Below are positions 275 to 64,000 of a stretch of DNA of 64,000 nucleotides, piece after piece. Numbering within the stretch: the stretch's first letter is position 1; each line of letters opens with the position of its first letter. Both the position numbers and the translations under genes were made by a program. The notes under the pieces were generated by a model. The model made no database searches and had not been told where the DNA came from. It worked only from the letters and a program-made list of their open reading frames with translations. The stretch lies in assembly GCA_965113315.1 (NCBI GenBank), contig OZ220373.1; one strand, written 5' to 3'. The stretch comes from Podarcis vaucheri. Taxonomy: Eukaryota.

Positions 275-874
275 TGTTAGGAGCTGGAGTCAAGCATAGG
301 CCAGCAATAAAAATACAGTGAAGTTAACTCTTTATTCAAAGCAACCAAAACAACTTAGGCCTAGTGATCACAGCAACTCTTCCTAGTACATCTCGCCCCA
401 GTGAGGCAGTTAAAAGGACTGAAGGAAGTTAAAAGGACCTTCCCACAGCTACCTAAGTCCCCTCCTCTCCAAGCAGCAGTAGACTGTATCTGTGCACAGC
501 CAACCTCTCCTCTGCCCTTTTCATTTCTCTGTGTTCTATGAGACAAGGATGGAAGGAAGTTGGTTGCGGCAGGAAGGGGAGACTCCCTGGATTCTTCAGC
601 AGCCAATCTCATCACTGCCTCTTGGCCCCCTCTTCTCCAGTCTTCTCTTCTGCCCCTGAGTCTGGACTGCTCTTTGCCCCCAGCCTCTTTCTACTCACTA
701 AACCCTCCAGTCCCTTCAGCTTCCAACACCTCCTCCTCCCAGACTTCTCCCTCTTCACTATCTGACTGATCATCATCATTCCACCACCAATTCCCGGGCT
801 CTGAGCCTTCTTCCCTTGGGGGTTTCCCAGCTGATGCTTCTCACTACTCCTCTTCATCCAGCCAGTCCTTGACA
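275..874 (-). mobile_element. Solo Gypsy-type LTR (~600 bp), decayed
   Basis: TG...CA termini with an imperfect inverted repeat (TGTTAGGA / TCCTTGACA). Purine-rich U3 on the minus strand and AATAAA on the minus strand near 331-336. Flanks ATTG/GTTG match only imperfectly. Confidence 0.65.
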
Positions 875-14616: not shown

Positions 14617-15505
14617 TAGCGTGCGCCTTTAGGGGTGAAGTCAAACCGCTGTGTTAGCAGCACCAAAGTGTTTTCTCCGGGGCACAAGCCTGGGCAGTGT
14701 GTATGGAGGTCCAGGGCTGCCCAGATGACAAGAACCCCTTCTTGGCCTCGATGATGTGGTCCAAAGGAAGGCAGAGAAATACGTTTGGCACCAGCTTGGC
14801 TACAAGAGTTGCTGGAAAGAGGCACACAAGGTGCCGTCCAGCCGTCTTAGGGACTCTACTCCGAGTTTGTGTAGGCTTTACTCCTTGGTCTTTTCTTCTT
14901 CCGAAGATATCCAGCAAGGCAGTGGAGGTTTAGGATCAGAGTTTTCCTCCTCCTAAATAGGCTACCTTCCCAGGTTGATGAGCTTCACCCGCCCTTCACT
15001 TCTCTCTTCAGCACATGCAGAAACTGCCTTCCTGTGAAGGCCTGGGATTCAGACTCGGAGGCTGAACCTGAGGGATCTCAGCCTGCACAGGATTCCCCAC
15101 TTCCAGAACCAGCTGGGGCATGAGCCTGAAGGGTCCTCACCTGTGCTGGGTCCTCAGGCGCAGACATCAGCTGAGTCTGCTCTGGCCCCTGAGGGGATGG
15201 AGGACCCATTGCCTGCAGGTGCTCCACTCGCAGCCCCGTCAGAGGAAGCGGAGGTTGCCTCTGGGTCCGCTTTACTGCCAGAGCTCCTGACCCGCCCTGG
15301 CTCCCTGCTTGCAAGCCTGTTCCTGACTTCACCCGACTCCCTGCCCTGCACCCAGCTCAGCTGCCTCCACATTGCACCTTTGACCACGGACTGGACTTGG
15401 ACCTCGCCTCTCGGGTAACCCATGGGACCAGCACACTTCCTGACCATTGGACCCACTATTGGTCTCATCCACGCAATCCGTTGGAGCCTGTCTTTGCATG
15501 GAGGG
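14617..15505 (-). mobile_element. Probable RTE-clade LINE 5' region, interrupted by the solo LTR
   Basis: The minus strand carries the motif caacctgggaaggtagcctatttaggaggaggaaaactctgatcctaaacc, recalled as typical of RTE 5' regions. The sequence rejoins across the LTR TSD. Confidence 0.5.
15033..15435 (+). mobile_element. Solo LTR (403 bp) nested in an RTE-like LINE fragment
   Basis: TGTG...CACA termini and a perfect 5-bp TSD CTTCC (15028-15032 and 15436-15440). Confidence 0.8.
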
Positions 15506-57499: not shown

Positions 57500-58810
57500 A
57501 TGCCCCGGTTTTTGCGCGCGCGCGCACCGTGACCAACAGAAAAATCGATTCCCCGACCCACCCCAGAAAATAACCCCAGACGACCCCGCTCGCCCCTCAC
57601 CTGAAATCGCTGTAGGGGTGGATGATCCAGAAGCCTGCAGTTTTAACCCTTTCCTGCTCCTTCTCCACCGCCTTCTGGCTGCCGAACATGCGGAGGGAGA
57701 ATTTGTTGACCCCGGGCTGCAGCATGGAGGTGAACTGGCGCTGCATGAAGCCGTATTGGCGCCCGGCAGCGTCGGCATCGTCGAAGCCCACCGCCGGCTC
57801 CTCTCCGCCGCCGCCGCCGCTTCCGCCGTCCACTTTGAAACACACCGAGTTGCCATGGTCCTTGAGGCTGCCGCCGCCGCCGCCGGCTCCCGGGCTGCCC
57901 AGCGCCTTGTCCGCCGCCGCCTTGCCCTGGAAGCAGGCGTTGGCGCTGGGGCTGCCGTCGTCGCGGCTGCCGGGCGACGAGCCGGGCTTGCTGCCCTCCA
58001 TGCCTCTGCCCAGCGAGCGGCCGGGAGGCGGAGGAAGGGAGGTGGCGCGGGAGAGCGAGCGAGGGAGGCAGCGCCGGCCAGGCGAGCCGGCTCCGTCTTG
58101 CAGCGGCGGCGGCGGCTGCTGCGACTGCTGCCCGCCCTTCAGCGGCTCCTCAGCCCCTTCTGGCGCGCCTCGCGTGGCAAGGGGACCGACGGGAGAGGGG
58201 AGGAGGGCTGAGCCAGAGGCAGCGGGCGGGCGGGCGGCAGGCTCCCTTCGAGCGCCCTCTGCCGACCGCAGCGGCGCGCTTGGGCCCGCTTCCCTTCGCT
58301 TGACATTGAGCGACCCGGACGAGCCCGGGAGGAGGGAAGGAGGGAGGGAGGATGGAGCGCGCCGTTAGGCAGCTGGCCTGAGCCAGCGTTTCCTCCTCAC
58401 ATCGCCGCTACCCAAAGAAAGGGACCGGGGCTCCCAAGCTGGCTTCGCTTGCACAGATTTGTCTTCCAAGATCGCTCCTCGGTCCCGGTGCCTTTAGCAC
58501 GAAGGACGGCTTCCGAGGTTGCACAGGCATGGAGATGATACCCAGCTGGGGGTTTCGCCTCGCAGACGGGGCGTCCTCCCGGTGGCGTTTGTAGCAACCG
58601 GGCGCCCTCCCCCCGGAACGAGCTGTTCATTGAGCATTTCACTCCCCCGGTTTGTCCGCAGCGAGGGACGTTAGACGACGTTGGCGCGCTGATGAGCACT
58701 CGCCTGCTTGGGATGAGGTTAGATGAGGTCGCATCAAGCGTCGCGCGCACACAGCCAGTTCCCAGCAAGTGTTCCTGTCCCCTATCGCAAAAGCCGGATC
58801 TTTCCGGGGA
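57500..58810. promoter_or_regulatory. CpG island covering the HCN1 promoter, 5'UTR and exon 1; GC boxes
   Basis: Very high GC and CpG density against an AT-rich, CpG-poor background. GGGCGG repeats at ~58224-58237 and a short CGG run at ~58103-58115. Confidence 0.9.
57601..58001 (-). CDS. HCN1: HCN1 coding exon 1 (N-terminus, HCN domain up to ...HPYSDF-R)
   Basis: Translation MEGSKPGSS...[13 protein letters not shown]...[54 protein letters not shown] matches the vertebrate HCN1 N-terminus. Strong Kozak context GGC-ATG-G. Donor AG|GTGAG at 57601/57600, phase 2 (401 coding nt). Confidence 0.97.
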
Positions 58811-60861: not shown

Positions 60862-61990
60862 GTGTCATTACTTAGTGCAAAGAATGGCTTAAAGTACTGG
60901 GATGAGCTGCATTTCTAAGCCACAGTGGTCCACTGGATAAGGCTGGAGGTCCATATCATAATCTTAGCCTACTTACTACAAGTCTGGCCATGTTAACTGG
61001 CTGTAACTGAGGACCTGCTCATCACTCCTTATCTCTAAAATGGAAAGAAAGGGGTTGCAGGATACTAAGAGCAGTGCACTTCACAAAGGCTCATTACTGG
61101 TCTATTTATTTATTTATTGACTGATTTACTTCACAATATATACCTGCCCTTCAGTAGAAAGATTTCCAGGTCTAGTGTGATTGATTAATGAGATGGGTTT
61201 AAAAAATAATAAATAATAAAGCAAGACCATTTGGGTCCCTTAGAATTAAATGACACCCAAACACTTAATCTAGGTCATATTTACATTACAAATGTGGCAG
61301 TGCTGTTTTGCTATATTCCCAGTGAGTGCATTGCAATTGCCATTAGTTGTTGGTCAATTGGCTGGCTATTCAGATGATTTATGTCATCCACACAGTCCCT
61401 GTAGATATATATTTTAAAAGCTCAATCTTCCAGTTTGAAAGCCAGAAATAAAGTTCTAACAAGCTGCAGAGCGTGACCAAGGCAACAGTCCAAAGCTATG
61501 TGGAATTATGAACAACAACTTTTGACTTTCTTGTTAAGTATTGTCTTGGGAAGATGCTCTCCTTACCATAGAACATGGGAACCTGAGAAGCGTCTTGCTG
61601 AATCAAGCCAAAGGCATCTTCTTGTCACACTGGCCAACCAGATGCCTATGGGAAGCCCTAAAGCAGGATGCAAGCACAGAGGCGCAAGGATACTTTAGAC
61701 AGAAATGCATGTACGAAAGAGGAAGGAATTTTATGGATTGCTCATTTCCCAGCAGAGCATTTCCAAGGTCATCCAGATCTTCTCTCCCGACTTCTAATTT
61801 TCAGAATAAAGTTGGTGATGTACAATAACACTAGACAGAGAAATCGGGTGAAAAGAGTTTACTTTTTCTGCCAACCACCCTTGTCTCTTCTTCACACCAA
61901 CACTCACAGATTCCCTGCCTTGTCAAGAGCTGAAGCCAGTGTCAGATGCAAGGGATGTGAACAAGTTGTCACAACTTTTTCTTTGCTTAA

Positions 61991-62443
61991 TGTCAGGGAA
62001 CTGACATCGGAGGAAAGGGAAGTGGTAGGGCTCCCAGAGACTGGGAGAGAGTCAACAGCTAAAGCAGGGACCAGTAGGGGGAGCGCGGGGTCTCTGGAGG
62101 AGGATCTCAGTAATGCTGAGAGAGACGCAGCAGCCCAGGCAGGAAGCAGAGGGGGAGAGAAAGGGGTGAGAGACACTTCGAGCGAAAATAGCGGGGAGGT
62201 GTCAGAAGCAACTGCAGGGAGACCTATGCTTCGCCGGAAGCTGTCACGTCGTGAGTCCAGGAGACGCGTTTCCGTTAAGGAACTTCTTTGCTGGAAGCGC
62301 TTCCGCAGACAGCCACTGTCGGACTCTACAAGTGACTAGAGCAGACATGTCTGAGGAGCTCTGTCACACACAGAGGTTTGTGGGGTCGCACAAACTCTGA
62401 AGGGGCACTATTTTAAGCACAAGCAGCTAATCATCCCCTGACA
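61991..62443 (+). mobile_element. 5' LTR (453 bp) of the Gypsy element
   Basis: TG...CA ends with an 8-bp terminal inverted repeat TGTCAGGG...CCCTGACA. The primer-binding site begins 2 nt downstream and the gag ATG 45 nt downstream. Confidence 0.85.
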
Positions 62444-62445
62444 GC

Positions 62446-62456
62446 AGTCCGACAGT
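62446..62456 (+). promoter_or_regulatory. Self-priming primer-binding site
   Basis: AGTCCGACAGT is the exact reverse complement of ACTGTCGGACT at 62315-62325 inside the LTR. No TGG-type tRNA PBS is present. Confidence 0.8.
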
Positions 62457-62488: not shown

Positions 62489-63499
62489 ATGAGCGACCCA
62501 GCAGGAGCCGGAGCCGCAGGGGGTGGAGCTGGTCCAAGCTTGGAAGACAGATACCGAGCATTGGAGGTCCAACTTGCACGGCAGACGGCGAGGCTCGAGG
62601 AGAGGAGGGCTCAAGATGCAGACAAGAAGGGGAGAACCACTCAGTTCCCCAGAAAGGTACCAGGATTAGTGCAGAAGTTTGGGGGGGACCCCAAGGATTA
62701 CCATGCCTTTAGGACTGAAATGCAATATGCCCTGAATGTGCAGTTTGATGAGTTCCCTGATGAGGAATCCCGAGTTGCTTTCGTAATTGGGCATCTTGAG
62801 AAGGGGGCGCGGGACTGGGTTCGACCCCTGATGGCAACGCACAACGATATCCTGAAGGACGCTATGAAATTCTTTCGTGCAATGGATATCATGTTCTCCA
62901 GCGATATTGAGGAGGGGGGAGTGCGCAGACAGCTAATGGCTTGCAAGCAGGGAAGCAGATCTGTCCGTGAGTACTGGACTGAATTTACCATGCTGATTCA
63001 CAGATTGGGGTGGGATTTATCGGCAGCACCCATTCAGATGCTATTTGAAGAAGGTCTTTCTTCAGCTGTGAAAGACGAGCTGGCCAGGAGCCCCAGGGCG
63101 GTGTCTATGGATCAGCTGACCAAATCTGCGCTGACCATTGGAACGCGCCAGGAGGCTAGAGCCTTGGAGAGGCGGGAAGGGAGAGGGGAACGTTGGAAGG
63201 AGTTACGCATTCCAGACATTCCTGAGCCAGCTTTCCCGCCGGCAGAGCCGATGGAAATCGGAACAGCCCGCGCGCGCGCAGTTTCAAAGCCCAGTGAGGG
63301 GGCGAAGAAGGAGGGAAAGGGACCCCGGAAATGCTATCTCTGCCAACAGCCAGGCCACTTTGCCAGAGTCTGCCCCCAGAGGAAGGAATGGCAAGGGATG
63401 GTGGGAACTGTTGAGGGGGAAGAGCAGGGAGAAACGGAGCAGGTAAAAGCCAACGCCTGGTTGCCAGCAGGGCACTGCAGCCAGGCCAAAGAGCAGTGA
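62489..63499 (+). CDS. gag: Gypsy Gag (336 aa; capsid/retrotransposon-gag domain, zinc knuckle)
   Basis: N-terminal coiled coil; FGGDP...RVAFVIGHLEKGARDW; KQGSRSVREYWTEF (MHR-like); EPMEIG; CYLCQQPGHFARVC (CX2CX4HX4C). No internal stops. Confidence 0.93.
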   Translation: MSDPAGAGAAGGGAGPSLEDRYRALEVQLARQTARLEERRAQDADKKGRTTQFPRKVPGLVQKFGGDPKDYHAFRTEMQYALNVQFDEFPDEESRVAFVIGHLEKGARDWVRPLMATHNDILKDAMKFFRAMDIMFSSDIEEGGVRRQLMACKQGSRSVREYWTEFTMLIHRLGWDLSAAPIQMLFEEGLSSAVKDELARSPRAVSMDQLTKSALTIGTRQEARALERREGRGERWKELRIPDIPEPAFPPAEPMEIGTARARAVSKPSEGAKKEGKGPRKCYLCQQPGHFARVCPQRKEWQGMVGTVEGEEQGETEQVKANAWLPAGHCSQAKEQ

Positions 63500-64000
63500 A
63501 AGTGCCCCTTTCCCAAGTGCCAGTGCCAGAAGCTCCTCGACCTGCTCTAGTGATTGAAGTGTCGCTAGAGTTGCAAAATGGACACCCCCTAAAAATAAAG
63601 GCGCTGTTGGACTCAGGCAGCTCCTGCAATTTCATGAGCAAGGAGTTTGCGGCTGAACACCAGATACAGACTATCCCCTTAAGCAACCCCCTGCAGGTGA
63701 CCACGATCGATGGCAGAGAACTGTTGGGAGGAGGCGTCAGCTTGCAGACCATCCCAATGATAATGAGGGTGGCAAGGCACACAGAACTGATAGCGTTTAA
63801 TGTGGCCACCTTGGGAGGCGCTCCCATTATTTTGGGAATGAGCTGGCTAGCCCTACATGATCCGCTGGTGGGCTGGCATCAAAGAGTGGTTTCCTTCGGT
63901 TCCGCACATTGCTTAGAACACTGCAGGGGGGAAAAGGGGTCAGCAGGGGCCCAAGCCACCCTAGCAGGGACGGAAGTGATGGAGAAGGGGAAGGTGCCAT
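63415..64000 (+). CDS. pol: Gypsy Pol N-terminus (aspartic protease), -1 frame relative to gag, runs off the window
   Basis: Frame open from 63415 (after TGA at 63412-63414) to the window end. Contains KALLDSGSSCNFMS (D-S-G active site, ~63598-63639) and PIILGMSWLALHDP. Confidence 0.9.
63442..63507 (+). promoter_or_regulatory. Candidate -1 ribosomal frameshift signal (slippery heptamer plus H-type pseudoknot)
   Basis: G_GTA_AAA in the gag frame, a 6-nt spacer, stem 1 at 63455-63464/63477-63486 and stem 2 at 63470-63476/63501-63507, located at the gag/pol overlap. Confidence 0.75.

Follow-up and report, generated by a model that had tools for sequence, protein, structure and literature searches.

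Pol of a young Podarcis chromovirus runs past the polypurine tract and closes with a selected, LTR-encoded tail

The window analysed here, a stretch of 64,000 nucleotides from Podarcis vaucheri, includes the 5' LTR and the first genes of a retrotransposon, and this LTR holds a frame of 115 codons (61992..62339, plus strand). We found that the same frame, when it lies in the 3' LTR, is the C-terminus of Pol (residues 1233-1347). Pol reads through the polypurine tract (PPT) into the LTR, the LTR-encoded part is under selection, and the succession of parts is a chromodomain, then the acidic-FxGF repeats, the PPT, an acidic linker and, last, the basic end. The copy in the 5' LTR is silent, as it would not be translated. 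We propose, with a probability of roughly 55%, that these last 115 residues of Pol are selected as the likely flexible end of an integrase tail, whose basic tip would tether the integration complex to chromatin and perhaps also serve as an import signal.

Results

Pol continues through the polypurine tract into the 3' LTR

The 5' LTR of the element (61991..62443, plus strand) is 453 nt long, is bounded by TG and CA, and is 100% identical to the 3' LTR, which lies in the neighbouring 10 kb (contig C31 21457110-21457562, equal to L031 5610-6062). The two LTRs are separated by 5119 nt, and the 5-bp target-site duplication CTTAA is found on both sides of the element, at 61986..61990 and, beyond the window, after the 3' LTR. 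Profile matches to Retrotrans_gag and zf-CCHC, both above cut-off, identified gag (62489..63499, plus strand; 336 aa). The pol frame starts with the protease, in the -1 frame relative to gag, and runs to the end of the window (63415..64000, plus strand) and beyond it. Outside the window come RT, RNase H, integrase and SH3, then a chromodomain (residues 1099-1148; Pfam Chromo, E 2.4e-11), and last a tail of 199 aa, which finishes inside the 3' LTR.

The LTR frame is open from base 2 (61992) for 115 codons, to a TAG at 62337-62339; when LTRs were shuffled, 87 of 20,000 were open for 115 codons from base 2. Codons 1-74 specify 16 D/E, 9 K/R and 11 S, and codons 75-115 specify 14 K/R and 4 D/E. 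The first in-frame ATG is codon 79 (62226). The initial annotation had described this frame and its translation, its division into an acidic, Ser-rich part followed by a basic part, and the lack of an early start codon in the LTR, all of which we reproduced. It had also supposed that pol enters the LTR in frame, and had named termination of pol before the PPT as the case against this. Pol does not end there: it is a single stop-to-stop frame of 1347 aa, which crosses a Gly-rich stretch and the PPT, enters the LTR at base 2 without a stop and ends in the 3' LTR. All 30 young copies of the family (family A) that were fetched are open from the chromodomain to the tail stop, over 249 aa; 29 of them fit the end motif, and the remaining one differs from it by a substitution. 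Family A is very young, as the 40 scored matches of 2717 candidates are 99-100% identical; the named proteins nearest to it come from Podarcis.

A site of 11 nt within the LTR (62315..62325, plus strand; LTR nt 325-335) is complementary, by sequence match, to a self-priming primer-binding site (PBS) located 2 nt past the 5' LTR (62446..62456, plus strand). The two sites covary, a compensatory change being found between older subfamilies. Self-priming is given as a signature of the Tf1/sushi group in the available parts of two papers (PMC4600332, PMC6317226), and from its mechanism the RNA 5' end is predicted to lie near LTR nt 325. With such a start, U3 would be coding over its whole length, and R would contain the stop codon. 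Neither an AATAAA nor a TATA consensus, nor a polyadenylation signal, was found in the 453-nt LTR of the window element. One base change in the self-primer site, shared by three loci (L201, L203 and L211), is also a D/E swap in the tail, so that the same base serves RNA pairing and coding.

The LTR frame is under purifying selection

Ratios of pN/pS were determined for 28 distinct copies of family A that had been chosen for open frames (32 of 51 loci were kept, and 4 duplicates removed). The ratio was 0.10 for the integrase core, 0.12 for the chromodomain, 0.24 for the tail preceding the LTR, 0.39 for the acidic LTR part (0.30 with singleton codons masked) and 0.15 for the basic end (0.09 with singleton codons masked). 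Values of pS were about 0.21-0.29 across all regions, and the silent sites of the LTR are thus as variable as those of pol.

Since this first set had been picked for open frames, a second test used LTRs chosen by DNA pattern alone. Of these 30 LTRs, 29 had an open base-2 frame; the counts for the other frames were 1 and 0. Computed, as in the first set, pairwise among related copies without tree correction, pN/pS was 0.27-0.32 for the base-2 frame, whereas the remaining sense frames gave 1.19-1.39. Shared variants in 25 distinct in-register copies fell at codon positions 1, 2 and 3 in the numbers 19, 18 and 49 (chi-square p 2e-5, with columns treated as independent). Among the first 100 of 689 matches, 95 had a U3 length in register and the other five were spread over four lengths, each represented by one or two copies; the recurrent length classes amount to only about three independent events. 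In addition, invariant Arg residues are encoded by up to four synonymous codons. An antisense frame of 143 codons (61904-62335) was treated as a shadow of the sense frame, the best antisense pN/pS being 0.46-0.49. We conclude that the 115-codon frame is under purifying selection at the level of the protein. Frame preservation and dN/dS across U3, which the initial annotation had proposed to measure, with a ratio near 1 as the neutral outcome, therefore speak for a coding function.

An acidic, variable part precedes a nearly invariant basic end

Codons 1-74 (61992..62213, plus strand) form an acidic, Ser/Gly-rich part, predicted to be disordered, that changes in length by in-frame steps between subfamilies. 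Codons 75-115 (62214..62336, plus strand) form the basic end, with an Arg-rich stretch and a CW dipeptide that are nearly invariant in the 28 copies. The invariant residues (28 of 28 copies) include, besides the basic ones, E, S, V, S, K, E, L, L and W. The basic tip outlasts the linker, as it is kept in the Podarcis proteins P0001-2 and in P0354, the latter at 49% tail identity, and CW with its basic flanks is also kept in family D (see below). In a search among 8000 candidates, tails of the A/D type were found only in Podarcis proteins and in one further record.

A fold model (mean pLDDT 55.6) gave a confident chromodomain, a helix just after it and a long region of low confidence. One of two short tail helices is weakly predicted at LTR codons 95-105 and holds the CW. 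Of the three aromatic residues of an HP1-type cage, the family A chromodomain keeps two, the third being changed from Y to E; the third cage residue of the family B chromodomain is Y. The HMGN-type core RRSxR[LI] is absent from the family A tail. Searches of Pfam, PDB sequences and the Atlas with the LTR peptide or the tail returned no family and no relative, and an alignment search with the tail (A1) matched chromodomains only. An apparent likeness between the basic end and the CENP-C motif was set aside, as the PDB search was empty and the copies are dispersed. Prediction of a complex between the basic end (codons 75-115) and host H2A/H2B gave a score of 0.03 and a mark of 0.34, and was weighed neither for nor against the tether. 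Contigs of four presumed-RNA runs from relatives cover parts of the tail, and they carry no reading of ends, strand or expression.

Tandem FxGF motifs lie between the chromodomain and the PPT

The segment that separates the chromodomain from the PPT, just outside the window (L031 5359-5610; Pol residues 1149-1232), contains a tandem pair of acidic-[FL]xGF motifs in families A and D, upstream of the LTR and hence not part of the 115-codon frame. Each is preceded by a hydrophobic stretch, the first of which is a predicted helix; the x positions vary, and F, G and F are mostly kept. The motif that binds the IBD of LEDGF/p75 and HRP2 is given as D/E-x-E-x-F-x-G-F in the portions available of PMC8022399, PMC7337902 and bioRxiv 10.1101/624023, and as ELM entry LIG_LEDGF_IBM_1 in PMC10767929. 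This strict form was present in 11 of the 13 family D loci (L284-L299) and in P0354-P0356, and a background of other stored proteins gave 1 match in 304,146 residues. Each motif of family A is one residue off the strict consensus; a relaxed pattern, set after seeing the data, fits 28 of 28 family A copies. The motifs are absent from the tails of family B and of Anolis elements. The host genome has matches to the LEDGF-domain exon at two places. The described partners of LEDGF/HRP2 are host proteins, whereas the candidate motifs recognised here by their sequence are part of Pol.

Related families in the same genome

The initial annotation had pointed to two solo LTRs of the window with decayed acidic frames from base 2. 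One of them (15033..15435, plus strand), decayed and internally deleted, belongs to family B, and for this family read-through was borne out: in full-length elements pol runs 109-117 codons into the 3' LTR and ends RRSARL. Read-through was seen in 13 of 20 full-length copies. Phase is lost in the remaining 7, in 6 cases at a run of G ahead of the PPT, and these out-of-phase copies are dispersed over the tree. An in-frame ATG occupies LTR nt 5-7 in most LTRs of this family: 26 of 30 similarity-picked copies begin TGTGATG (V-M). One family B element (L263) has a single fused gag-pol frame of 1558 aa, and its LTR has the tail stop at nt 329-331, then, at nt 343, the TATA-like sequence GATAAAA, and then, at nt 374, the self-primer site. 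The frame of families A and D, unlike that of family B, reaches or crosses the predicted RNA start.

The other solo LTR (275..874) lies on the minus strand, a correction to the initial annotation, and belongs to the old family C. It has an acidic frame from base 2, yet here the proposal was not borne out: stops in frames 1, 2 and 3 numbered 51, 26 and 16 (first 120 nt of 34 decayed copies), so that the base-2 frame is not the one with the fewest stops, and no copy linked to pol was found. Pol was absent within 1.5 kb of 30 similarity-picked and 27 pattern-picked loci, and among 150 scored matches, which yielded only solo or pol-less copies, no open frame exceeded 285 aa. Remnants resembling RRSLRL were seen in 6 of 52 copies, and 7 of the 13 copies with a readable start (of 30) begin TGTCATG. 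Three loci (L196, L197 and L199) have family C-like LTRs after a shared non-coding internal stretch that has no similarity to pol and is possibly a non-autonomous derivative. The gag and pol in L122 were first taken to be those of family C; on closer analysis they belong to a separate family, D.

Family D is an older sister of family A, with a Pol identity of about 65-70% and an LTR that can hardly be aligned to that of A. Read-through was in phase at 9 of the 12 readable junctions in 13 loci. A shared V-[KR] start had also been noted for the two solo LTRs; both window copies do begin V-K, but this is specific to the copies, and most family B copies begin V-M.

Chromosomal distribution and flanks of the copies

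The older subfamilies of family A and family D concentrate on contig C41 (22 of 30 loci in one older-subfamily set, and most rows of a second listing), and none of the 40 youngest family A matches lies there. Such a pile-up might be expected of a W-like chromosome that does not recombine. Just upstream of one family D element lies a family A LTR with 97% identity to that of the window element (L293 142-592). In the 5' flanks of 30 young insertions, A or T was present at -8 in 29 and at -7 in 24; the GC and CpG content of these flanks gave no clear target class. The window element itself lies about 3.6 kb upstream of a GC-rich first exon on the minus strand (approximately 57600-58400), whose translation we take to be the N-terminus of an HCN1-type channel.

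Similar tails occur in other squamates

In a tree built from the RT-RH-IN part of Pol, families A and B group with the Anolis elements in a single clade (100/100), whose sisters are elements of frogs and fish; the tree is midpoint-rooted, keeps 27 of 31 rows (four were dropped for short alignments) and has no named V-clade reference. The solo LTRs had been regarded as unrelated to the window element, a view that the place of the 15033 family's Pol in this clade contradicts. Tails that are acidic and then basic, after a Gly-rich, PPT-like stretch, were found in the Anolis proteins P0020 and P0021 (94 and 366 members), in P0143 of the amphisbaenian Rhineura and in P0154 of Vipera. These species are represented by proteins alone, and the overlap of their tails with an LTR is one that we infer. 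Both Anolis tails end RRSARI; those of P0143 and P0154 have neither RRSAR[LI] nor the basic-CW motif, and the Anolis protein P0023 stops short. Shuffle rates for RRSAR[LI] ends were 56 and 8 per 100,000. Together with the read-through in families B and D, the tails of Anolis, amphisbaenian and viper proteins uphold the suggestion that the trait is common to other squamate families.

In fish relatives only about 15-25 residues follow the Gly-rich stretch, and the basic patch precedes it. In cyprinid and catfish Pol (for example P0051, P0060, P0069 and P0092) this patch reads RPRGRPRR, presumably an AT-hook-like element, and the short end reads R-x-P-S-P-E-[FY]. One protein, P0167, ends RRSARIAAR about eight residues past the Gly stretch, a minimal version of the tail, and a frog protein (P0028) ends RRSPRLQA.

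Discussion

By every feature that we examined, the window element is a chromovirus of the Tf1/sushi type. It shares with this group (V-clade, with sushi-ichi and Amn-ichi, -ni and -san; names as they appear in the part available of PMC6317226) gag, the order PR-RT-RH-IN-SH3-chromodomain, a self-priming PBS, TG..CA LTRs and a 5-bp target-site duplication. It differs in the tail of 199 aa after the chromodomain, 115 aa of which lie in the 3' LTR and are under selection, whereas the ends of the fish relatives, judged from proteins alone, are about 15-25 aa long. As these relatives have short ends, not every lineage needs a long tail encoded in the LTR.

A similar layout has been described in plants. 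In CRM elements of group A, pol runs on within the 3' LTR, and the CR motif encoded there putatively serves as a domain for targeting, according to the sections available of PMC3059260 and PMC3605345. The polyprotein of Beetle and Bingo of Beta vulgaris runs on into the 3' LTR, where the integrase C-terminus is encoded, and the layout is the same here. The CR motif of CRM replaces the chromodomain, however, whereas the window element has a true chromodomain before the PPT; CRM is primed by tRNA-Met, whereas the PBS here matches the element's own LTR; and CRM is centromeric, whereas copies of the window family are found at many positions on many contigs, in an assembly whose centromeres are unannotated. 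The CRM-like layout of squamates occurs in a different clade and is likely convergent, as judged with a tree that has no plant rows. We found no description of pol reading through into the LTR in vertebrate chromoviruses in the literature searched; older key papers and Repbase, Dfam and GyDB lay outside this search, and the trait may be annotated there.

The basic tip invites comparison with host proteins. HMGN, Dsup and Dot5 have a motif that binds the acidic patch of the nucleosome, with the core RRSxR[LI] (PMC12487698 and PMC13347269, in the parts available). This core recurs, in a disordered context, as a candidate motif at the ends of the tails of family B (RRSARL) and Anolis (RRSARI), whereas the window family has an Arg-rich, CW-containing end instead. 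The parallel with HMGN therefore rests on the sister families. An arginine anchor in foamy virus Gag affects integration sites (PMC9040877). No report of HMGN-type or FxGF motifs in retrotransposon integrases was found in the literature searched.

We suggest the following mechanism. The full-length RNA would start near LTR nt 325 and end beyond nt 349, and would thus carry the 3' U3 and the stop codon; that the stop codon is on the mRNA is an assumption, because no polyadenylation signal was found in the LTR. Pol would be made by a -1 shift from gag, and the tail would stay on the integrase after cleavage by the protease. The acidic part may act as a spacer that tolerates changes in length, and the Arg-rich tip may grip nucleosomes, through either the acidic patch or the nucleosomal DNA, and may double as a signal for nuclear import. 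As the family A chromodomain does not have the third cage aromatic, the tail would supply a tether that the chromodomain may have lost. The CW codons of families A and D lie 20-30 nt before the predicted RNA start, and a promoter element could also be constraining them.

The most serious competitor, which we nonetheless consider unlikely, is that the basic end is only an NLS, an importin-alpha cargo carried on a spacer, with no tethering to chromatin. A classical bipartite NLS has two basic residues, 10 further residues and then 4 basic residues of 5; codons 90-106 fit this pattern, Ty1 integrase reportedly has a C-terminal NLS, and family A is without the HMGN motif. An import signal fails to explain, however, the invariance of residues such as V, L and W in all 28 copies, the retention of CW in family D or the precise RRSAR[LI] ends found in family B and Anolis.

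Less probable still is a role in the particle or on the cDNA rather than on host chromatin, such as RNA or cDNA binding, intasome assembly or the balance of charge in Gag-Pol. Arg-rich disordered ends do bind nucleic acid non-specifically, and the acidic part tolerates length changes, as this role would allow. Binding of this unspecific kind would leave Trp, Leu and Ser free to change, though, and the sequence-specific motifs resemble those by which host proteins bind chromatin.

We give very little credence to the idea of an independent accessory protein encoded in U3 and translated from an RNA that is spliced or initiated internally. The initial annotation had likened the layout to that of nef and sag, which are separate genes, expressed from their own mRNAs, with coding sequence in the U3 of the 3' LTR. 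Coding in U3 is common to both, but the likeness is weak: the frame of the window element extends Pol at its C-terminus as a fusion and has no separate start, and continuity with pol was found in all three families examined (A, B and D). The ATG at LTR nt 5-7 in most family B and most readable family C LTRs could suggest otherwise, yet families A and D do not have it, the first ATG of family A being codon 79, and it falls within the terminal att motif; the 5' terminal motif of Sushi is TGTYANR (PMC3601003). Equally remote is the view that the tail is a by-product, tolerated after pol lost its stop and conserved through promoter, att and self-priming signals in the DNA of U3 and R: the basic end does overlap the predicted core promoter and the self-primer site, and a purine-rich U3 (65% in the window element) would have few stops and many acidic codons, but the pN/pS values largely refute it, as do the excess of third-position variants, the freely varying silent sites, the synonymous codons at invariant Arg and the recurrent in-frame length variants.

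A selected integrase tail with a chromatin-tethering tip is thus the reading that we prefer. A broader version of it, which we put forward tentatively and hold to be possible rather than probable, is that squamate chromoviruses have made the whole of U3 encode the end of a modular tether for the integrase, composed of mimics of host motifs. One branch would have an HMGN-type anchor; the lacertid A/D branch, with its broken methyl-lysine cage, would combine tandem LEDGF/HRP2-type FxGF motifs with an LTR-coded basic-CW anchor. If this mimicry is true, a retrotransposon would recruit the host tether of HIV by copying a cellular motif.

The plant precedent for the layout limits the surprise. The LTRs of an abundant clade of vertebrate retrotransposons are nevertheless dual-coded, as promoter DNA and as a selected protein, and this alters the way in which their annotation and dating should be done. 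A very young family with thousands of candidate matches in one genome, and two classes of short motif (an acidic-patch anchor and a LEDGF-type FxGF), makes the choice of insertion sites by vertebrate chromoviruses a testable question.
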